Part shown: piece by piece, positions 15,426 to 27,072 of the stretch
How positions within the stretch are numbered: the stretch's first letter is position 1
Layout of the letters: each line of letters begins with the position of its first letter
Source: an uncultured Chloroflexia bacterium
GTDB lineage: Bacteria > Chloroflexota > Limnocylindria > Limnocylindrales > CSP1-4
DNA length: 64,000 bases
Direction of reading: 5' to 3'
Assembly: GCA_963748625.1 (NCBI GenBank)
Contig: CAVVJT010000002.1
Coordinates: 128,001 to 192,000, forward strand
Translations under genes and position numbers: made by a program
Notes under the pieces: model-generated
What the model saw: the letters and a program-made list of their open reading frames with translations, nothing else
Told to the model about the DNA's origin: nothing
The model's database searches: none

Positions 15426-18245
15426 TTACCGGTCCGATGCAGGGCCGGGACCCCATGGTCCGGTGAGCCCGGCCGGCTCCGGTCCAGGTTGTCCGGTGGC
15501 GGCCTCCACGACGGTGGCTCCGCTGTCGGCCGATCCGCCGGCAAGGGCAGGGGCCATCCCTGCGGTCGCTCCACGGAACAGCGTGGTCTGCAGCGCAGTT
15601 CCGAACCTGTTGACGAGCACGTAGCGTTCCGTCGCCGACGTCCACACGATCGACGGCATGTCGTTGTACCGGGATGTGTCGCTGGCAAGGGCGATGCGGT
15701 CAGGGCTGGTCCACATGGCGCCGTTCGTGCTCGACTCCGACCACACCAGGTCCGAACCGTTGCCCGGGTCGCAGCCACCGCAGAAGGTGTACTCGCCCGA
15801 TGCGGCGGCCGCGATGCCGGCTGTCCCGAACAGCGCGATCGCCGGCCCGTACAGCTGGTAGGTGCTGGGGCTGCCGTTCTCGTCGAGACCCCAGCCCGTC
15901 GGCACGACCCGCTTCGGCCCCCAGGTCCCGCTGGTCCGGATGCGGACGTTGAGGTTGCCGTCGAGCCAGGCGACGCCGATCCGGCTGCCGGCGATCGCCA
16001 GCCCGGCCATGTCCTGCGCCCCGGGGAGGGACGTGGCCGTCCCGAAGCTCGTCCCGGTGTTCGTGGAGATGCGCACCTTGGTGGACCCGTGCAGCGACGC
16101 GATCCACGCGACGGCGATGGTCTTCCCGCTCACCGCCACGTTCACCAGGCCTGTCCTGCCGCCGAATCCCTTGACCGAAGTGGTGCCCACCTTGACCGTC
16201 TTCCACGTGCGGCCTCGGTCCTTGCTGGTGGCGACCTTGACGTCGCCCGTGGCGGCATTCGTGTAGCCCACCACGACCGTGGATCCGCTGATCGCAATCG
16301 ACGGATGGTCAACCCGGCCACTGGTGCTCGTGATGCGCTGGGCCGATCCCCACGATCCGCTGCCGGAGTTCGTGCTCACGCGGACCCATAGCACGCGGGG
16401 CGCCGTCGCCCCAAGGTTGAAGACCTTCGCTGCTGAGACCCAGGCGACGGCGACCTTCCTTCCGCTCGCTGCGGTGACCGGCCAGAAGCCGTGCTTGTTG
16501 CCTGGGTTGACACGGGTGCTGGACGACCACGACGCGCCGCCGTTGGTGCTGCGGTTCAGGTACACGGGCATGTAGGGGCCGGTGTTCTTCACCGGCTTCG
16601 AGCCTGCGTACCCTGACGAGCTGACCTGGACGAGCGTCGTCGTCCCACCGTCCACGGCCCGCGCAAGCGCGCCACCGAGGTTCCATCGGCCCCCGAGCGA
16701 TGCTCGCGCCGTCCACGTGGCGCCGAGCGCCGGGAGCGCGTTGCTGCCGGTGATCTGCGACGCTCGGTGACCGACGAACCCCGGTCCCTCGACGACAACG
16801 TCCACCGACTGCGTGTTCCCGTCCCATGGCGATGGGATTGCCGGCGGCGCATAGCGCACCGTGATCGAACATGATCCAACCGCCGGGATGCCCTCGGTGC
16901 AGCCGTTGCCGATTACGGAGAAGAGGTCGGTGCGCCCGTTCGCGAGCACCACCGAGGTGATCGGCTGGGCGATCGCGGCCTCCGACGTGAGGGTCACCAC
17001 GGCATCGGCGGTCTGGCCCGGGCGGATGGTGTCGATGACGACCGACGGGGTGATCGACACCGGGTTCGTGCCAGTCACGCTGAGCGCCACCACCTTCGCT
17101 CCCTGGTTCGGCCCCAGGTTGACCGACAGGGTCGCTGAGGCCTCGGCCACGCCCGGAGGCGTCGCCGTCACGTCGATCGTGCAGGTCTCCCCGCCGGCGA
17201 TCGGCACCCCGGTACAGCCGTCGGCATCGATCGAGAATGCGGATGGCGTGATGCCGCCCAAGGTCACGCCCTGGACCGTGCCAGTGCCCGGCCCGGCGAA
17301 GGCGACGGTGATCGCCCCCGGCCCCGAGGTCGTGGTGGCGGGAGCGCTGCCGAGCGGGAGGGAGGACGGTGCGACCGCCCACGGGTCCATGACGGGAATC
17401 GACAGGTGGCCATACCAGGTGGCCCGCTCGAGATCCGTGACGACCCGGATGGAGCCGGACTGGAGGCCGGGCCCGATCGGCGCGATGTGGACCGCCGCCG
17501 TGCAGGTCTCGCCCGGGTCGAGCGTCACGCCAGAACATGTCTCGGCATCGAGCGTGACGGGGGGCCCGCCGGAGGTGAGACCCAGCTCGCTGATCGCAAC
17601 CGGCATGGTGCCGTGGGCGGTGAGCGTCCAGGTCCGGTCCGTTGTCTCGCCGGGGTACATGGCGGGAACGGCTGGCATGGTCGCAGACAGCCATGCGTAG
17701 GGGTGGCTGGAGTTGATCCGGACCGTGTAGCTCGCCGCCTCGTTGGGGCAGGTCGCGTCCATGGCCAGCTTCGTGACGGCGTTGGTCTCCAGCACGGCCT
17801 CGAGCTCCCAGACCGTGATCGTGGCCTGCTCGCAGTTCGCGCCGGCGCCAGCGCCCCGGTTGTACCAGAGCGGGAGGCCCGTGTAGGTGTGCCCCAGCTC
17901 GACCTCCTTGCCGGCACCGGCCCAGAGCTGGACTCTGACGCTCGTGGACGTTGCCTGGTCCCAGAAGCCGGCGGTCAGATAGCCCTCACCGTTCTGCGCC
18001 ACCGTCCATGCCGCCGCATCAACCGTTGACGCCGGGGCGCGGTACTCCGTCCGGCGGTCCGCCTGGAGGTCCCCCTGGCGCCGGTCCACCGTGACGAAGG
18101 TCTCGGCTGCGAGGGGAGCCTGTGCGGTTCCGGCGTCTGCCGCGCGGGCAGCACCTGACAGGGCAGCCGCAGGCGCCGACCCGGCGCTGACGAGCAGGAT
18201 CGCGGACAGCATGGCCGCGACGACGCCTGTCGTACGTGTGTGCAA
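15426..18245 (-). CDS. large secreted protein with Ig-like (choice-of-anchor D-like) domains and BNR/Asp-box propeller
   Basis: Signal peptide; three C..C Ig-like repeats; S.N/D.G..W boxes (STNGGASW, SKDRGRTW, STNGAMW); TTG start with GGAGG RBS. Confidence 0.85.
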   Translation of the reverse strand: MHTRTTGVVAAMLSAILLVSAGSAPAAALSGAARAADAGTAQAPLAAETFVTVDRRQGDLQADRRTEYRAPASTVDAAAWTVAQNGEGYLTAGFWDQATSTSVRVQLWAGAGKEVELGHTYTGLPLWYNRGAGAGANCEQATITVWELEAVLETNAVTKLAMDATCPNEAASYTVRINSSHPYAWLSATMPAVPAMYPGETTDRTWTLTAHGTMPVAISELGLTSGGPPVTLDAETCSGVTLDPGETCTAAVHIAPIGPGLQSGSIRVVTDLERATWYGHLSIPVMDPWAVAPSSLPLGSAPATTTSGPGAITVAFAGPGTGTVQGVTLGGITPSAFSIDADGCTGVPIAGGETCTIDVTATPPGVAEASATLSVNLGPNQGAKVVALSVTGTNPVSITPSVVIDTIRPGQTADAVVTLTSEAAIAQPITSVVLANGRTDLFSVIGNGCTEGIPAVGSCSITVRYAPPAIPSPWDGNTQSVDVVVEGPGFVGHRASQITGSNALPALGATWTARASLGGRWNLGGALARAVDGGTTTLVQVSSSGYAGSKPVKNTGPYMPVYLNRSTNGGASWSSSTRVNPGNKHGFWPVTAASGRKVAVAWVSAAKVFNLGATAPRVLWVRVSTNSGSGSWGSAQRITSTSGRVDHPSIAISGSTVVVGYTNAATGDVKVATSKDRGRTWKTVKVGTTSVKGFGGRTGLVNVAVSGKTIAVAWIASLHGSTKVRISTNTGTSFGTATSLPGAQDMAGLAIAGSRIGVAWLDGNLNVRIRTSGTWGPKRVVPTGWGLDENGSPSTYQLYGPAIALFGTAGIAAAASGEYTFCGGCDPGNGSDLVWSESSTNGAMWTSPDRIALASDTSRYNDMPSIVWTSATERYVLVNRFGTALQTTLFRGATAGMAPALAGGSADSGATVVEAATGQPGPEPAGLTGPWGPGPASDR

Positions 18246-18996: not shown

Positions 18997-19689
18997 TCAG
19001 TGTGCCCCGTGGCCTCCGGGGCCGGCCTCGATCGCCGGTGCCGCGTCGATGTCCGGATCCGCGTGGCCCCATCCGGCGATCGCCCGGCCCACGGCGGAGA
19101 TCGCCAGGAGGAGGCCCAGGATCAGCACCGGCAGCGTCGCCACCGGCTGCTCGCCCGTGGCGGGGTCGGCGGGCGGCAGCGCGATCAGCCCGATCGCCGT
19201 GATCAGCACGCCCAGCCCGAACTGGATGACGATGGAGACCGAGCGGCGGTGCTTCTCATACCAGCCGATCGCCGGGTCAGGGCCGTCGGTGGCGTGCCCG
19301 TCATCCTCCCAGATGCGGATGCCGTTGAGCACCGTCCCGATGCCGATGGTGAGCCCCACCAGCAGCATCGGCAGGTTGAGCGTGAGGCCCAGCGTGCCGT
19401 CCGCCGCGGAACCGCCGGTGACGAACGCCAGGGCGCACAACGCTATGGCGAGGAGCATCCCGCCCGCGTGCATCACCAGCAGCGTGCGTCCGTTCGGGCG
19501 CCACCGCAGGCGCCGCGGCAGCGCGCGGCGGTAGCCCGACCACGACCGGTACAGCCAGAACAGGTAGACCAGCACCAGCCCCAGCAGCAGGATCGGGATC
19601 AACAGCACCAGCTGGCCCCAGTCCGGCGTGATGAGGGGCGTGAGAAGCTCGATGAAGCTGTTGAAGAGCGAGGTCAGGGCGTCCATCAA
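18997..19689 (-). CDS. oxidase-operon membrane protein (possible subunit IV/CtaF-like)
   Basis: About 5 TM helices; last gene of the oxidase operon, abutting the previous stop. Confidence 0.75.
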   Translation of the reverse strand: MMDALTSLFNSFIELLTPLITPDWGQLVLLIPILLLGLVLVYLFWLYRSWSGYRRALPRRLRWRPNGRTLLVMHAGGMLLAIALCALAFVTGGSAADGTLGLTLNLPMLLVGLTIGIGTVLNGIRIWEDDGHATDGPDPAIGWYEKHRRSVSIVIQFGLGVLITAIGLIALPPADPATGEQPVATLPVLILGLLLAISAVGRAIAGWGHADPDIDAAPAIEAGPGGHGAH

Positions 19690-20261
19690 GCTGCCTTCTC
19701 GAAGTCCATGTCGTCGTTGTCCAGCATCCGGAAGACCGTCCAGCCGGCGAACAGCACGAGGCTGATCGGGATGCTGACCATGAAGACCACTAGGATGGCA
19801 TCGATCAGGCCCGGTCGGGGGGTGACGATGAGGCCCAGCGATCCGGACGGGTGGATCGTGCAGGCGAACACGTTGACGGCCGCAGCCTCAGCCACGATCG
19901 TGAGCGCCTGGCCCGGGTTCACCTGCCAGCCACCCAGCGTGTGGACCACGATGTCCTGGTTGTCCAGCACGAGGCGGTCCCCGGAAACGAGGCGCACTTC
20001 GGACGGCAGCGATGCCGGCCGACCCGCGGCGATGTCATCGGCTGTGCCGCGCGGGATCACGAGCGACACGTCCTTGGGCGGGGCGACCTGGTCCACGCCG
20101 AACGAGGTCCAGGCCACCACCGTCAGCAGGGTTCCCAGGGTGAACCCGAGGACAAGCGAGCCAGCGAGGATGCGCAGCGAGACACGCTCCGCGACGGTCC
20201 GCCGCCAGCCCGAGGGCTGGGCAGGCGTGGTCGCGGCGAGCGGCAGGCCGGCAGGTGTCAC
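19686..20261 (-). CDS. membrane-anchored cupredoxin-like protein
   Basis: TM, then NQDIVVHT...FACTIHPSG (His...Cys-x2-His), then TM. Confidence 0.75.
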   Translation of the reverse strand: MTPAGLPLAATTPAQPSGWRRTVAERVSLRILAGSLVLGFTLGTLLTVVAWTSFGVDQVAPPKDVSLVIPRGTADDIAAGRPASLPSEVRLVSGDRLVLDNQDIVVHTLGGWQVNPGQALTIVAEAAAVNVFACTIHPSGSLGLIVTPRPGLIDAILVVFMVSIPISLVLFAGWTVFRMLDNDDMDFEKAA

Positions 20262-20271
20262 GGGACGCGGA

Positions 20272-20886
20272 TCACAGGATGTAGAGCACCGGGAAGACGA
20301 TCACGAGCCACATGATGTCCACGAAGGTCCAGAACCGGACGACGCCGGTCGCGCCCCAGTGGTCACCCGGGCCGAAGTGGCCGCGAATGCCCAGCCAGAA
20401 CAGCAGGCCCATGGCCAGCAGGCCCTGGAGCAGGTGGAACACGTGGAGGCCGGTCATCGCGTAGAACGCGGTGCCGTACGGGGAGCTCATGGAGAACTCG
20501 GCGGTGGTCCACTCGACGACCACGCCGCCGATGAAGATGACGCCCAGGACGAAGGCCGCCGCGATCGAGAGCACGAACTGCGTCCGGTTGCCCTTGGAGA
20601 TGCCCTTCACGCCGCGGTAGCCGAACCACGACGACAGGAGGAGGATCCCGGTCATCGCGATACCGAGGGGCATGTTGACATGCTCCTTCTCGGTGCCCGC
20701 GAGGTAGAACCGGGCCGCCGCCATGGCCAGGAAGAGCATCGTCTCCGAGGCCATGAAGAACAGCAGACCGAGCCGGTTCATGCCCGGCACATCGTGCTCG
20801 TGCTCGTGCTCGTCGCCGTGCGCCACGGCGTGGGTGTCGTGGTGGAGGGCGGACTCGGCCGCCGGCTCCAGCGTCAGCGCGGTCAT
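20272..20886 (-). CDS. ctaE: cytochrome c oxidase subunit III
   Basis: LFFMASETMLF, FYAMTGLHVFH and FWTFVDIMW. Confidence 0.93.
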   Translation of the reverse strand: MTALTLEPAAESALHHDTHAVAHGDEHEHEHDVPGMNRLGLLFFMASETMLFLAMAAARFYLAGTEKEHVNMPLGIAMTGILLLSSWFGYRGVKGISKGNRTQFVLSIAAAFVLGVIFIGGVVVEWTTAEFSMSSPYGTAFYAMTGLHVFHLLQGLLAMGLLFWLGIRGHFGPGDHWGATGVVRFWTFVDIMWLVIVFPVLYIL

Positions 20887-22784
20887 GCCTTCACCTCCTC
20901 GTCAGCAGCGCCGGCGACGCCCATGATGGCGTGGGGCCGGGCACCGGGGATGCCGTAGCCGTAGGGGGACCCGACCACGATGGGCGTGGACGGGAAGTTC
21001 TCCACCGGCGGCGGCGAGGGGATGAGCCACTCGAGGGTGCGGGCGCGCCACGGGTTGGCCGTCGCACGCTCCGTCTTCTTGGAGAGCAGCGAGCGCAGGA
21101 CGTTGAACGTGAACACGAGGAACGACGCGCCCAGGGCGAACGCCATCAGCGAGATGAAGACGTTGTACGGCACCAGGTCCGCCGGGTAGACGTAGATGCG
21201 GCGGTTCATGCCGTTCAGGCCCACCCAGAACATCGGCAGGAATGTCAGGTTGAAGAAGATCATCGCCATCCAGAAGTGGACCTTGCCCAGCTTCTCGCTG
21301 AGCATGCGTCCGGTCATCTTCGGCCACCAGAAGTAGAAGGCCGCGAAGAGCGCGAAGATCTCACCGCCGATGATCGTGTAGTGGAAGTGCGCCACGACGA
21401 AGTAGGTGTCGTGGAGGGAGATGTCGGTTGGCACGTCGGCGAGGAAGATGCCGGTGATGCCGCCGATCACGAAGTTGAACACGAAGCCCAGCGCGAACAG
21501 CATCGGCGTGCGCAGCCACAGCTTCCCGCCCCAGATCGTGCCCAAGGCGGACAGGAAGATGATGCCCGTGGGGATCGAGATGAGCTCGGTGGTCACCAGG
21601 AACGGGCCCAGCAGAGCGTTGGGCATGCCCGACACGAACATGTGGTGTGCCCACACGATGCCCGACATGCCCACGATGCCGATGAACGCGGCCACCACCC
21701 AGCGGTAGGCATACAGCGGCTTGCGGCTGAAGTGCGCGAGCACCTCGAGCGCCATGCCGAAGCCCGGCAGCACGAAGATGTAGACGGCCGGGTGGCTGTA
21801 GAACCAGAACATGTGCTGGTAGAGGACCGGGGCGCCGCCGCTGCCCTGGAAGAACGAGGTCCCGAACAGCCGGTCCAGCAGGACCATCACCAGGCTCGCG
21901 GCGAAGAACTGGGTGAAGAACAGGGCGAGCCAGCTGGCTGCGAACACCGACCACACGAAGATCGGCAGGCGGCCCCAGGTCATGCCCGGCGCGCGCATCT
22001 TGATGATCGTGACGAGGAAGTTGAGGCCGCCCGCGATCGAGGTCAGGCCGAACACGATGATCGCGAGGTTGAAGATGACCTGGCCGGACGCGTTGATGAC
22101 CGACAGTGGCGCGTAGGCCGTCCAGCCGGAGTCCCAGCCGCCCAGGAGCTGGGTGGCGAGGAGGCTGACGATGACCACCGGGATCAGCCAGAACGTGAAC
22201 GCGTTCAGGCGCGGGAACGCCATGTCCTTGGCGCCGATCATGATCGGCACGAAGTAGTTGCCGAAGGAGCCCATGACCGAGGCCACCGCGACCGCGACCA
22301 TCGCGATGCCGTGGAAGCTCATGGTCCGGTTGTACGTGTCGGCGTCCATGAGCGGGTTGGCGGGATCCATCAGCTGGAGGCGCATGAGCATCGCGCCGGC
22401 GCCTGCGACGAGCAGCAGGACGATGAAGGCGGCGAGGTACTGCAGGCCGATGACCTTGTGGTCCACGCAGAAGGTGAGGTACCGGCGCCAGTCGGTGGGG
22501 ACCTCCTTGACGGGCAGGCCCACCCACTCGCGGCCCCAGGTCTTCCACATGCCCACGCCGAACAGCCAGCCGGGGACGGCGAGGATGTAGCCGGCGGTGA
22601 CGCAGTGGTCGGTGGACCAGGGCTCCACGCCCATCGAGGCGCGGAGGGCCATCACCAGCCCGGCGCCGATCACGAAGCCGATCGTGGCCATGAGGATGCC
22701 CTTGAGGATCGGCACGAAGGCCGAGATCACCGAGGGCTTCTTGGAGGCCGCGGAGACGTTGGCCGCGGCGACGGATGCGGTCAT
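20883..22784 (-). CDS. ctaD: heme-copper oxidase subunit I (A2-type, atypical K-channel)
   Basis: FHG, DMAFPRLN, FWFYSHPAVY, WAHHMF and HDTYFVVAHFHY. Confidence 0.96.
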   Translation of the reverse strand: MTASVAAANVSAASKKPSVISAFVPILKGILMATIGFVIGAGLVMALRASMGVEPWSTDHCVTAGYILAVPGWLFGVGMWKTWGREWVGLPVKEVPTDWRRYLTFCVDHKVIGLQYLAAFIVLLLVAGAGAMLMRLQLMDPANPLMDADTYNRTMSFHGIAMVAVAVASVMGSFGNYFVPIMIGAKDMAFPRLNAFTFWLIPVVIVSLLATQLLGGWDSGWTAYAPLSVINASGQVIFNLAIIVFGLTSIAGGLNFLVTIIKMRAPGMTWGRLPIFVWSVFAASWLALFFTQFFAASLVMVLLDRLFGTSFFQGSGGAPVLYQHMFWFYSHPAVYIFVLPGFGMALEVLAHFSRKPLYAYRWVVAAFIGIVGMSGIVWAHHMFVSGMPNALLGPFLVTTELISIPTGIIFLSALGTIWGGKLWLRTPMLFALGFVFNFVIGGITGIFLADVPTDISLHDTYFVVAHFHYTIIGGEIFALFAAFYFWWPKMTGRMLSEKLGKVHFWMAMIFFNLTFLPMFWVGLNGMNRRIYVYPADLVPYNVFISLMAFALGASFLVFTFNVLRSLLSKKTERATANPWRARTLEWLIPSPPPVENFPSTPIVVGSPYGYGIPGARPHAIMGVAGAADEEVKA

Positions 22785-22786
22785 CG

Positions 22787-23839
22787 TCACTTCACCTCGA
22801 GGGTGCCGGTCATGGTGGTCGGGTGCGCCTGGCACAGGAAGTTGTAGGTGCCGGCGGGCAGTGGATCGATGTTGAGGACCTGCTCGATGGCGCCTGGCTG
22901 GAAGTCGGTGGCGCCCAGCGGCTTGCCGTCGGCGCCGAGGACCGCGATGTTGTGGATCACGCCCTCGTCGTTGTTGCTGAACGTGATCGAGATGGGCTGG
23001 GCGGGCACGGCGCTCAGGGTGTTCGGATTGAACTTGAAGTCCACGGTGCCGGCCGGGTTGTTCGCCTCGATCGCGAGCAGCTGGGCACCCTCGACGGGCC
23101 CGCCACCGCCGCCGCCGGTCTTGTTCTCCTCGACCCAGGCGGTGAACTCAGCCTCCTCCACGACGCGCACCGGGACCATCATCCGCGCGTGCTCGCCGCC
23201 GCACAGCTGCGAGCACTGCAGGCGGAAGTTCGCGTCGCCCTCGTAGGAGCCCGTCTCGGTGGGCGTCATCGACATGTAGGTGGTGAGGCCGGGGACGGCG
23301 TCCCAGCGCATGCGGAAGGCGGGGACCCACACGGAGTGGACCACGTCCGACGAGGTGATCTCGAAGCCCACGGACTTGCCCACCGGCAGCACGAGCTCGG
23401 TGCTGCTCTTGGCGCTCTGGCCGGGATAGGTGATGGTCCAGCCCCAGCGGAACCCGTTGACCTGCACGACGACGTCGGGCTGTTCCACGAGGGCCACGAC
23501 CTTCGGCAGCTCCGTGAGGCCGGGGTAGACCATGACGCCCACGGCCATCAGCGAGGTCACGATGAACCAGGCGAGCGGGATCGGGCCGCGACCGGTGATC
23601 GGCGCACCATCCTCGGCCGGCTGGCCCCGGTGGCGGAAGGCGAAGACGGAGTACCCCAGGCCTGCGATCACGAACGTGAACACGGGCACCGACATGATCA
23701 GGAGGATCTTGAACGTCTCATCGATCATCTCGCCCTTGTCGGTCGCGACGACGGGCTGGAACGGGACGTTGGCCAGGACCAGGCCGATGGCGGTGAGGAC
23801 CAGCCAAAGCAGGCCCACGATCAAGATGTGGCGCCTCAC
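22787..23839 (-). CDS. ctaC: cytochrome c oxidase subunit II with fused C-terminal plastocyanin-like domain
   Basis: DVVHS...CSQLCGGEHARM CuA motif; second domain HN...CQAHPTTM; GTG start after AGGAGGAGG. Confidence 0.94.
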   Translation of the reverse strand: MRRHILIVGLLWLVLTAIGLVLANVPFQPVVATDKGEMIDETFKILLIMSVPVFTFVIAGLGYSVFAFRHRGQPAEDGAPITGRGPIPLAWFIVTSLMAVGVMVYPGLTELPKVVALVEQPDVVVQVNGFRWGWTITYPGQSAKSSTELVLPVGKSVGFEITSSDVVHSVWVPAFRMRWDAVPGLTTYMSMTPTETGSYEGDANFRLQCSQLCGGEHARMMVPVRVVEEAEFTAWVEENKTGGGGGGPVEGAQLLAIEANNPAGTVDFKFNPNTLSAVPAQPISITFSNNDEGVIHNIAVLGADGKPLGATDFQPGAIEQVLNIDPLPAGTYNFLCQAHPTTMTGTLEVK

Positions 23840-23931
23840 GGACGCGCGACCTCCTCCTGGATGCGTGGGTGAGTGGGGGACAGGGACGCGACGGGCGGCG
23901 CCAGCAGGCTGCGACACCGCACAGGGAGGGG

Positions 23932-25254: not shown

Positions 25255-27072
25255 TCAGTGGCGGGAGGTCGACCAGAGCTCGCGCACGTTGTCACGCAGG
25301 ATCAGGATGCCCACGATCAGCAGCACCAGCGCGATCGACCAGGACACGTAGTCCTTGATCACGATCACCGCGCCCACGATGGCCAGCACGATCGTCACCT
25401 GCAGCAGCAGCTGGAGGAACCGGCGCCGGACGACGGCCTCGATGACCGAGTAGGCGACGATCACGACCAGGAGGCCGATCCACCAGTGGCCGACGTCGGT
25501 GATGAGCAGCCCGCCCATGATGGCCAGGGCCAGGGCGACGCTGACGGCAGACCAGATGTCGAGCACGCGGCTGCGCCGGATCGTCGCCGGATCCTGCGGG
25601 TGGACGACGTGGCGGAGATGGGCCTCCGGGTCACCCTGCTCTCCGGCCGCGAGCGATGTCAGCTGCGCCTCGCAGTCAGCGATGGCCGCGCGGATCCCGT
25701 CGATGCCCATGCGCGTCGTGCGCAGCTCGGCGATGGCGGCCTCGCGCTGGGTCACAAGCGCCGCAACGTAGGCTGGGGAGCGGCCTGCACGCTCGGCGGC
25801 GGTCACACGGACGCCGAGGCGCTGCGCGTCGATGGCCTGCCGCTCGAGGCCGCCCTCGATCTCCGCCAGGCCGAGCCGCAGGTCGGCCAGCTCTGCCTCG
25901 ATCGTCTCCACGGCTCTACCCGGCGGCGGCGTCGTGTCGAGGCCCGCGAAGGCGATCGGGTCGATCCAGGACTGGCGCGGCCTGCCGTCGCGCGCGAACT
26001 TCGGTCCTGCCGGCGCCCGCTCACCCGCCATCCGGTCGTTCGTGTCGAGCCCGAACAGGCCGTCGTACGCGGCCACCCACGGCGTGTCGTCGTCGATCAG
26101 CACCGGGGTCCACGGCTGAGGCTGCGCGGGCCCCACAGTCACGCCGTCGCCTCGGGCGTAATCCACGAACGGGATCGCGGCGAACTGGCCGCCCGACCCG
26201 CCGCTGCCCTGGCCGAGCGTCTCGGTCCAGAACCCGTTGACGGCCTTGCCGAAGGCGCGCACGCGCTTGGGCAGCGAGAGCGGGACCGGGAGCAGGTACT
26301 CGCCTGGCTCGATGTACGCCGCGTGCGAGCCGGCCCCGGCAAAGATCACCGGGTGGGTCCCGTCCACGAGATGCACCACCGGATCGTCCCAGCGGCGGCG
26401 CAGGTCCGCCCCCACCTCGTCGTGGGCGGCCCGTGCGAACCAGACCGGGGTTGTCGTCCCGTCCTCGTCCTCCTCGAGGAACACGAAGCACTGCTCCCAG
26501 TCTGCCTCGTGGTCGTTGGCGCCCGCGAACGACGAGCGCCAGTCGTTCATCGCGTAGAAGAACAGGTAGTGGCAGATCGTCCAGCCGGCGTTGCGGACGA
26601 CGCGGCCGTGGTAGACGAAGTGCGGATCCCGCGCGCGGGCCGCGTGGTACTTGATGTCGGCTGCCGCGACGGTGCCGCCCGGGACGGTACCGCGCACCAG
26701 GAGGGAGAGGTCGAAGCCGGCGTCGATCAGCCGGGCGGCGATGCCCACCCGTGACAGGCGGCTCGGAGCGCTGAACCGTGTCCGGGTCGGGCGGTCCTTG
26801 CGCTGGGCCAGCGCGACGCCGGACAGGGGCTGCTGCACGTACCGCAGGAAGAGGGCACGGTCCGGGTAGCGGCGCCGCCAGCCGGGCAGGTCCTGGAGGG
26901 CGAGGTTGCCTTGCGGAACCACCAGGGTCCGCCGGCCGCCGGAATCAACCGCCCAGAGGTCGCAGTCGGCAACGTAGGCCGCGGCATCCATGGGGAAGAA
27001 GAACTCGCCCTTGGTGAACTTGATCACAGGCTCGAAGCGACGCAGGAGCTCGAGGTCGCCGTCGGCCGTCAT
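25255..27072 (-). CDS. hypothetical protein, Vps62/NPP1-like domain plus coiled-coil and C-terminal TMs
   Basis: FEPVIKFTKGEFFFP, YLFFYAMNDW, NDHEADWE and GSHAAY. Confidence 0.8.
   Translation of the reverse strand: MTADGDLELLRRFEPVIKFTKGEFFFPMDAAAYVADCDLWAVDSGGRRTLVVPQGNLALQDLPGWRRRYPDRALFLRYVQQPLSGVALAQRKDRPTRTRFSAPSRLSRVGIAARLIDAGFDLSLLVRGTVPGGTVAAADIKYHAARARDPHFVYHGRVVRNAGWTICHYLFFYAMNDWRSSFAGANDHEADWEQCFVFLEEDEDGTTTPVWFARAAHDEVGADLRRRWDDPVVHLVDGTHPVIFAGAGSHAAYIEPGEYLLPVPLSLPKRVRAFGKAVNGFWTETLGQGSGGSGGQFAAIPFVDYARGDGVTVGPAQPQPWTPVLIDDDTPWVAAYDGLFGLDTNDRMAGERAPAGPKFARDGRPRQSWIDPIAFAGLDTTPPPGRAVETIEAELADLRLGLAEIEGGLERQAIDAQRLGVRVTAAERAGRSPAYVAALVTQREAAIAELRTTRMGIDGIRAAIADCEAQLTSLAAGEQGDPEAHLRHVVHPQDPATIRRSRVLDIWSAVSVALALAIMGGLLITDVGHWWIGLLVVIVAYSVIEAVVRRRFLQLLLQVTIVLAIVGAVIVIKDYVSWSIALVLLIVGILILRDNVRELWSTSRH

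Follow-up and report, generated by a model that had tools for sequence, protein, structure and literature searches.

In every model A-family heme-copper oxidase, the lysine of the K pathway is regarded as essential, and whether it serves as a proton wire or as a charge compensator is still debated. The operon described here lies on a 64,000-nucleotide stretch of DNA (contig CAVVJT010000002.1, assembly GCA_963748625.1; hereafter the window, in whose coordinates all positions are given) from an uncultured Chloroflexia bacterium and encodes an A-family oxidase of the A2 type, in which subunit I carries isoleucine at the site of this lysine and subunit II ends in a blue-copper domain. Residues of subunit I are numbered by their position in its 650-residue open reading frame (ORF). 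The Rhodobacter sphaeroides numbers K362, T359, M353, S299, E101, and E254 are the customary ones, E101 being the transmembrane Glu of subunit II.

Oxidases without the K-pathway Lys (K-less) have been described before. Passages of the preprint of Degli Esposti et al. (10.1101/2020.03.01.968255) report that, in acidophilic Fe2+ oxidizers, K354 of COX1 (Paracoccus denitrificans numbering) is replaced by Ile and the transmembrane Glu of COX2 (E78) is substituted, and that the CuA-ligand Glu is lost in proteobacterial iron oxidizers. Excerpts of its published version (PMC8239418; Front Microbiol 2021) delineate, at a basal position, a "2TM" COX1 clade marked by two additional N-terminal helices, and refer to a supplementary figure for the classification of K-channel variants. 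In the portions of both sources drawn on here, the K-less "2TM" group is described from sequences, and a group called "A2 type without functional K-channel" takes in metagenome-assembled genomes (MAGs) of Actinobacteria and Chloroflexi. The window enzyme resembles the "2TM" group, as these portions define it, in the change of Lys to Ile or Val, the loss of both the COX2 transmembrane Glu and the CuA Glu, the two extra helices, and the A2 class. The signature of the lineage was already published in 2020, and the window enzyme is a further member. The first-pass annotation had implied novelty; neither the clade nor its three hallmark substitutions are new, and what stands of that claim is that the published passages describe them from sequences and not enzymatically.

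The window enzyme differs from the published group as follows: (i) its subunit II is fused to a blue-copper domain; (ii) it keeps all the D-channel columns, three of which deviate in Acidiferrobacter; (iii) the loss of the CuA Glu, presented in the cited passages of the preprint as unique to proteobacterial iron oxidizers, is found here as Gln in 79 of 120 homologs, the named members being of Chloroflexota type; and (iv) its organism gave no sign of the acidophily or iron oxidation of the acidophilic Fe2+ oxidizers, no search having been aimed at either. Three elements of our analysis are possibly new, namely, the gain of a Glu/Ser pair that appears from the alignments to recur in a separate archaeal clade, the blue-copper domain fused to subunit II, and the K-less type as the only heme-copper oxidase in a genome whose relatives, as far as examined, all carry the canonical Lys enzyme.

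Retained redox centers and lost K-channel residues

The motifs FYSHPAVY, DMAFPRLN, GGLNF, and TTELISIPTGIIFLS of subunit I and GPIPLAWF and CSQLC of subunit II, as quoted in the first-pass annotation, were all found in the sequence, and the codons proved to be as quoted, ATC (Ile) at 21558-21560 and GAG (Glu) at 21585-21587. Subunit I has the six His ligands (H175, H485, H483, H348, H397, and H398; two bind the low-spin heme, one the high-spin heme, and three CuB), the cross-link Tyr352 on helix VI (HPAVY, H-x3-Y), the D-channel residues, and the "YS" pair that replaces the helix VI Glu in A2 enzymes (Pereira/Sousa definition). H175, H348, Y352, H397, H398, H483, H485, and R545, as well as the D-channel Asn N272, are invariant in an 80-row alignment (A1). 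The A2 K-channel set, which consists of Lys, Thr, Ser, and Tyr-I (PMC3084760, Table 2) and the entry Glu of subunit II, reads differently, with Ile for Lys, Leu for Ser, and Pro for the subunit II Glu, and the only survivors among the K-path residues checked are Thr423 (the T359 equivalent) and the cross-link Tyr352. HMMER alignments to solved structures confirm the change of Lys to Ile: the Lys of "PTG(I/V)K" in Thermus thermophilus caa3 (2yev_A), plant COX1 (7jro_a), and Mycobacterium tuberculosis CtaD (8hcr_F) aligns with Ile426. On the same helix VIII, Glu417 and Ser420 lie one and two turns above the retained Thr423, with i, i+3, i+6 spacing.

The same holds for subunit II, where the Glu of "LE(V/I)(V/A)W" in 2yev_B and in 1m56_B (R. 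sphaeroides) aligns by HMMER with Pro114, confirming that the entry Glu has become Pro, and the Glu of "C(A/S)ELCG" in these two chains aligns with Gln237. The CuA ligands H194, C235, C239, H243, and M246 are kept in all of the 120 nearest homologs of subunit II. The C-terminal domain is not a cytochrome c domain as in caa3 oxidases, but a Cupredoxin_1 match (residues 293 to 373 of the ORF; Pfam) with His-Cys-His-Met ligands. This tail occurs in 109 of the 120 homologs, among which H322, C362, H365, and M369 are kept in 109, 108, 108, and 108, respectively.

The best solved relative of subunit I is the caa3 oxidase 2yev_A (4.1e-130), and Foldseek searches with its AlphaFold2 (AF2) model (predicted local distance difference test score [pLDDT], 92.7) returned the R. 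sphaeroides aa3 and caa3 enzymes at the top (root mean square deviation [rmsd], 1.2 to 2.0 Å). The caa3 oxidase has in common with the window enzyme the A2 "YS" pair, the D channel, CuA, and the fold (rmsd, 1.2 Å), and both bear an extra electron-entry domain on subunit II, which is a cytochrome c in caa3 and a cupredoxin here. Unlike the window enzyme, caa3 still has the Lys ("PTGVK") and the Glu of subunit II, does not have the two N-terminal helices, and has its subunits I and III fused. In the model, the N terminus forms helices at residues 37 to 67, 75 to 93, and 96 to 104, and the segments 37 to 67 and 75 to 104 are thereby predicted to precede canonical helix I. The solved A-family structures do not have this extension, their alignments to subunit I starting at residue ~121, and it is common to the homologs of 620 to 640 aa. 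Subunit I scored 601.5 against the NCBIfam CtaD equivalog, below the cut-off of 670.75, and subunit II scored 149.7 bits against CoxB, for which the cut-off is 147.7.

A different chemistry (NO or peroxide), which the first-pass annotation had also proposed, found no support. That the operon encodes an NO reductase (NOR) or a peroxidase and not a respiratory O2 reductase would be suggested by a Glu buried close to the active site, such as NORs have, and by the change of the CuA/Mg Glu to Gln, but we regard it as very unlikely: the cross-link Tyr, the three CuB His, and the heme His pairs are invariant in the 80-row alignment, CuA is intact, and HPAVY with its invariant Tyr has no Glu at the Tyr position, unlike the NOR motif "H-X-(Arom)-X-E" (PMC3084760). 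The redox-active Tyr is, according to the excerpted text of PMC11214002, required for oxygen reduction and missing in NORs. Moreover, no other heme-copper oxidase was found in the genome, which does encode heme A synthase as well as a cytochrome b complex. The cytochrome c-type NOR (cNOR) of Pseudomonas aeruginosa (NorB, 3o0r) resembles the window enzyme in a buried Ser/Glu of helix VIII near the binuclear center and in the lack of a K channel from the negative (N) side of the membrane, as read from parts of PMC3431322; it differs in an FeB with a Glu ligand and in the lack of a cross-link Tyr, both unlike the window enzyme with its Tyr and three CuB His.

The B-family ba3 oxidase of T. thermophilus likewise has no Lys in the K-path region and gave only a weak match (E, ~1e-8). 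B-family enzymes do without a D channel and have a K-analogue made of Thr/Ser/Tyr (PMC3084760), whereas the window enzyme has a D channel and Ile at the Lys site. Nor does the helix VIII Glu look like a C-family (cbb3) trait: CcoN of Paracoccus ferrooxidans, aligned to solved cbb3 structures and inspected by eye, has no Glu at the corresponding place, and the known cbb3 E323 sits in the later "FEGP" helix.

Distribution of the trait and phylogeny of subunit I

Among the 120 nearest homologs of subunit I (61 to 100% identity), residue 417 is Glu in all, and residue 426 is Val (61), Ile (57), Leu (1), or Met (1); D204, N193, N211, and the complete FYSHPAVY motif are unchanged throughout. Since the same pattern runs through all 120 nearest homologs, Ile426 is neither a sequencing error nor a mutation confined to this genome, in agreement with what the first-pass annotation had argued from the Ile codon. 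In subunit II, the entry position is never Glu in the 120 homologs (Pro in 117, and Tyr, Val, and Leu in one each), and the CuA/Mg position is Gln in 79 and Glu in 41.

A wider search gave 18703 hits, from which the best 150 representatives of clusters at 50% identity were surveyed. Among these best 150, Lys was found in 92 and Glu at position 353 in 17, none of which has the Lys. We also observed Gln at the Lys position in 16 of the same 150 representatives (P0142, P0158, P0163, P0173, P0177, P0180, P0182, P0193, P0195, P0198, P0215, P0218, P0222, P0229, P0248, and P0269), most of them ~770 to 860 aa long and four much shorter, usually with Ser at 352 and a residue other than Asn at the first D-channel Asn; they constitute another K-path variant within the A family.

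The coupling between the two subunits was examined at 80 loci from species-representative genomes, where the adjacent subunit II could be inspected. Twelve of the 80 loci encode a subunit I without Lys, always with Glu at 353, and the entry Glu of subunit II is gone (P, Y, I, T, or S) from each of the 10 alignable ones, the other two being truncated frames. At the 68 Lys-bearing loci, subunit II was found at 66, and each of the 66 keeps the entry Glu. At these loci, the loss of the Lys, the Glu at 353, and the loss of the subunit II Glu occur together, and both the 120-homolog sets and the 80-locus survey support a real subfamily. The claim of a co-loss in two subunits stands for the Lys and the entry Glu (10/10 versus 0/66); it does not extend to the CuA Glu-to-Gln change, which is uncoupled, being present at 6 of the 12 K-less loci, with Glu at the other six, and at 3 of the 66 Lys-bearing ones. 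At two cyanobacterial loci (L012 and L017), the subunit II beside a Lys-bearing COX1 reads DSQ(Y/F)SG in the CuA Cys region, and these are taken as CuA-less, quinol-oxidase-like paralogs because this motif replaces the CuA Cys residues.

A comparison of 30 members of the clade described below with 87 Lys-bearing sequences revealed the residue switches that accompany the loss of Lys. The S299 position is Leu in 24/30 clade rows versus Ser in 84/87 Lys-bearing rows. Position 353 (residue 417) is Glu in 30/30, where K-type rows have M, L, or I, and position 356 (residue 420) is Ser in 30/30, where K-type rows have Ala. On helix IX, position 390 (residue 454) is Asn and position 403 (residue 467), near the end of the helix on the positive (P) side, is Asp, each in 29/30 clade rows. 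In R. sphaeroides numbering, Val423 is changed to Thr and His472 to Phe, both in 30/30. The old K site is lined by the hydrophobic residues I426, F427, L428, and L363. No new buried Lys, Arg, or His was found among the clade-specific switches, in which the only basic ones are R102 and R118, in or next to the N-terminal extension.

Trees were inferred with FastTree (162 rows, trait columns removed) and with IQ-TREE (56 rows, mixture model). In the FastTree phylogeny, the subunit I of the window falls in a 33-row clade with a support of 99 (local Shimodaira-Hasegawa [SH]-like), made up of 30 rows with Glu-353 and no Lys, two Lys-bearing Chloroflexi-type rows, and one gapped row; IQ-TREE recovered the same arrangement, with an SH-like approximate likelihood ratio (SH-aLRT) support of 99. 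The COX1 of Acidiferrobacter thiooxydans (P0132) belongs to this clade, which links the window enzyme to the group of Degli Esposti et al., as do Acidimicrobiia-type A1-like sequences and MAGs of Chloroflexota and Actinomycetota. A second set with Glu-353 and no Lys lies apart, among A1-type enzymes. The five of its rows that were looked up are from Euryarchaeota, Thermoplasmata, and Hydrothermarchaeota, with one cluster labeled Chloroflexota plus Nitrososphaerota. This separate archaeal set has Ser/Thr at 356 in 6/6 and Phe at 472 in 5/6. The approximately unbiased (AU) test rejected a joint bacterial and archaeal clade (log-likelihood difference, 302.7; p-AU, ~1e-49), for groups that were named after the tree had been seen. 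Glu-353 and Lys-362 coexist in none of the 162 rows, Glu without Lys being found in 37 and Lys without Glu in 87.

Proton supply without the K-pathway lysine

Altogether, that the enzyme is an A-family oxidase belonging to this clade is highly probable. We propose, with moderate confidence in the reading as a whole, that the operon product is a working A-family heme-copper O2 reductase with the A2 signature, a member of the known "2TM" K-less lineage, in which D-channel supply is combined with a Glu relay. In this model, electrons would pass from the blue-copper domain to CuA, to heme a, and then to the heme a3-CuB center, and N-side protons would be taken up via the D channel alone. The Glu417-Ser420-Thr423 stripe of helix VIII would adjoin the binuclear center, beside the conserved Thr416 (T352 equivalent), and could replace the function of the Lys, either as a local proton donor or as a charge-compensating group while the center is reduced. 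Asn454 may provide polar lining roughly at the depth of the lost Lys. A rewired proton path, as the first-pass annotation had suggested, is therefore plausible from the residue pattern, whereas the specific mechanism (D channel only plus Glu relay) is tentative and, taken by itself, somewhat doubtful.

Several points weigh against this proposal: (i) the weakest step is the siting of Glu417 near CuB and heme a3, which we infer from helix periodicity and from general knowledge of structures; (ii) Lys is required for turnover in the model A-family enzymes, so that a supply by the D channel only needs a compensating change, and this change is a guess; (iii) in the alignment made here, the D-channel positions N121, D132, and N139 are occupied by Tyr, Thr, and Leu in P0132, the COX1 of an iron/sulfur oxidizer, and for this reason a supply by the D channel only would fail for the clade as a whole, unless the alignment is wrong; (iv) the absence of any coexistence of Glu and Lys in 162 rows is mostly shared ancestry from about two origins, since just five independent pairs were usable in the phylogeny-corrected test of Glu gain and Lys loss (~2 same, 0 opposite, 3 uninformative; p, 0.5); (v) the groups compared in the AU test were chosen post hoc; and (vi) a literature search retrieved no enzymology of a K-less A-family oxidase, which does not establish its absence from print. 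As a separate observation, the D-channel residues of P0132 clash with the D channel described as "essentially conserved" in the preprint (10.1101/2020.03.01.968255), and a misalignment of this divergent sequence is possible.

Two other routes for the protons have to be weighed. A rebuilt N-side path similar to the K channel, leading by way of Asn454, Thr423, Ser420, and water to Glu417 and the Tyr, would leave the enzyme with two N-side channels. Asn454 in 29/30 clade rows versus L, M, or T in Lys-bearing enzymes, Ser420 in 30/30, and the retained Thr423 would suit such a path, as would the K-analogue of the B family, which works without a Lys (PMC3084760, Table 2). We nevertheless consider it unlikely, given the hydrophobic residues at and beside the old Lys site, the entry Glu of subunit II missing in 120/120 homologs, and the lack of any new buried basic residue among the clade switches. 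A second alternative, which seems to us quite unlikely, is that the chemical protons of the K path arrive from the P side via the Glu417 region, as in cNOR; the enzyme would then be less electrogenic, which would suit high-potential donors of low driving force, such as blue-copper proteins. This route could be invoked in view of the cNORs, which work without N-side channels and whose hydrophilic Ser277/Glu280 pocket is described in excerpts of PMC3431322 as overlapping with the end of the K pathway, of the Asp that 29/30 clade rows have gained at position 467, toward the P-side end of helix IX, and of the link between the clade and cupredoxin donors. Conversely, by simple spacing from the His-His pair, Glu417 is two residues off the Glu280 of cNOR, the intact D channel favors N-side uptake, and P-side supply would presumably bring no gain in pH homeostasis to the acidophilic members.

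Returning to the D channel with a Glu relay, an extended hypothesis could be that Glu-x2-Ser-x2-Thr represents a third independent way to feed the binuclear center, with at least two origins, in bacteria and in archaea, each accompanied by the loss of the Lys, and combined with D-channel-only uptake and blue-copper entry. This wider proposal is speculative, and we think it rather unlikely to hold in full. If true, the enzymes of the clade would be natural "K362-minus suppressor" experiments on the purpose of the K pathway.

Operon, genome context, and significance

The enzyme is encoded by a minus-strand operon (18997-23917) of five tightly packed genes for subunit II, subunit I, subunit III, orf4, and orf5 (Table 1). 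The subunit II ORF matches Pfam COX2 (3.5e-13) and Cupredoxin_1 (2.4e-10). The probable start of subunit I is the ATG at 22784 (633 aa), 2 nt past the stop of subunit II and preceded by GAGGTGA.

Table 1. Positions of the oxidase genes and of the residues and domains discussed in the text
Feature	Positions	Strand	Description
Subunit II gene	22787..23917	-	ORF of 376 aa; GTG at 23837-23839 is the probable start, giving 350 aa (homologs, ~350 aa)
Subunit I gene	20883..22835	-	ORF of 650 aa from GTG; Pfam COX1, 3.7e-142
Subunit III gene	20272..20886	-	204 aa; Pfam COX3, 8.5e-19; start overlaps the subunit I stop (ATGA)
orf4	19686..20261	-	191 aa; membrane protein
orf5	18997..19689	-	230 aa, hydrophobic; start and orf4 stop overlap by 4 nt
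N-terminal extension of subunit I	22524..22727	-	Two extra helices, residues 37-67 and 75-104
D-channel entry Asp204 (D132 equivalent)	22224..22226	-	Partner Asn codons at 22257-22259, 22203-22205, and 22020-22022
Helix VI Y346-S347-H348-P-A-V-Y352	21780..21800	-	A2 "YS" pair, CuB His, cross-link Tyr
Leu363 (CTC)	21747..21749	-	Site of the K-channel Ser (S299)
Helix VIII E417-L-I-S420-I-P-T423-G-I-I426	21558..21587	-	New Glu and Ser, retained Thr (T359 equivalent), Ile for Lys
Asn454, helix IX	21474..21476	-	Clade-specific; L/M/T in Lys-bearing enzymes
Pro114 (CCG), subunit II	23576..23578	-	Site of the transmembrane Glu that opens the K channel
Gln237 (CAG), subunit II	23207..23209	-	Site of the CuA/Mg Glu, motif CSQLCG
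Type-1 (blue) copper domain, C terminus of subunit II	22790..23065	-	Ligands H322, C362, H365, M369

The product of orf4 matches no Pfam or NCBIfam family. It has 31 close homologs plus one fragment, in which H107, C134, H137, and L142 are invariant, and its AF2 model (pLDDT, 70.9) shows a beta domain between N- and C-terminal helices. The top-ranked Foldseek chains have the cupredoxin fold, all with weak scores (best E, 3.8e-3), and look-alike clusters in the Atlas are mostly from Chloroflexota. The protein is thus probably a membrane-anchored, cupredoxin-like protein with Leu at the axial position. Membrane-bound "Cup" cupredoxins are mentioned for these oxidase systems in the available passages of PMC8239418. 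For orf5, no family was found in Pfam, NCBIfam, or the Atlas, and no match in 80 related loci; its GC content at third codon positions (GC3) is coding-like (0.95).

The neighbors of the operon are unrelated to it and comprise, according to Pfam, an EthD protein, an MscS-type channel, PPK2, a PrsW protease, MFS and SulP transporters, and a Band 7 protein; three further flanking genes that were scanned have no Pfam family. Two long minus-strand ORFs with coding-like GC3 (15426-18245, 939 aa, and 25255-27072, 605 aa) flank the operon region, and Pfam returned nothing for either.

The host genome (4.63 Mb, 98.3% complete, 7.74% estimated contamination) holds one each of COX1, COX2, CtaA, a cytochrome b locus, and cytochrome bd, and the K-less enzyme is the only heme-copper oxidase found in it. 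We compared it with 30 genomes of relatives, 18 of the same genus and 12 of the same order, of which 27 encode COX1. All 29 COX1 loci examined in these relatives have Lys362, Ser299, and Ala356, with 43 to 47% identity to the subunit I of the window, and in none of the relatives did a match go above 49% identity. Since the sole COX1 here is K-less and those of the relatives are canonical, the K-less enzyme is present instead of, and not beside, the canonical one, which suggests a replacement of the canonical oxidase, possibly via horizontal transfer. The operon has a GC content of 0.677 and a tetranucleotide match of r = 0.933, at about the 6th and 3rd percentiles of random 4.9-kb pieces of the genome; this mildly atypical composition fits either membrane-protein bias or horizontal acquisition.

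These same percentiles, the estimated contamination of the bin, and the absence of the enzyme type from the relatives examined could also point to an artifact, that is, a sequencing error, a decaying gene, or a contig from another organism in the bin. This explanation appears extremely unlikely to us, as the same residues occur in 120/120 homologs, the reading frames are unbroken and their starts coupled, contig C2 is like the remainder of the genome (r, 0.9994; GC, 0.710), and the neighboring PPK2 follows the taxonomic gradient, with mostly 61 to 69% identity in same-genus genomes (weaker in 2/18) and ~50% in same-order genomes. Mis-binning, in particular, is unlikely.

A further trait of the published "2TM" group is its association with type 0 CtaA and an iron-oxidation system (Cyc2, rusticyanin). 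In the genome studied here, the sole match to heme A synthase (CtaA; contig C5, 22644-23489) lies in a 717-aa open frame, which suggests a fusion, perhaps CtaA-CtaB; a CtaA-CtaB fusion is listed for Chloroflexi in the excerpted part of PMC8239418. In metatranscriptomes, three runs yielded short contigs that are 90 to 97% alike over subunits I to III. They do not count as evidence for transcription of the operon, because they come from relatives and the libraries may contain DNA. We also noticed that contigs of all four runs pile up at 21307-21471 (depth, 120 to 590, versus 0 to 85 elsewhere), which is no sign of local expression because this helix X heme-ligand region is conserved across the COX1 of many organisms.

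Our study describes in the window a clean and complete example of the K-less lineage, with its operon, fused blue-copper domain, and whole-genome context, together with the recurrent Glu/Ser pattern. A natural lineage without the Lys could help to settle the role of the K pathway. Here, a free-living bacterium has its only heme-copper oxidase from this lineage, which makes for a direct test bed for K-pathway function.

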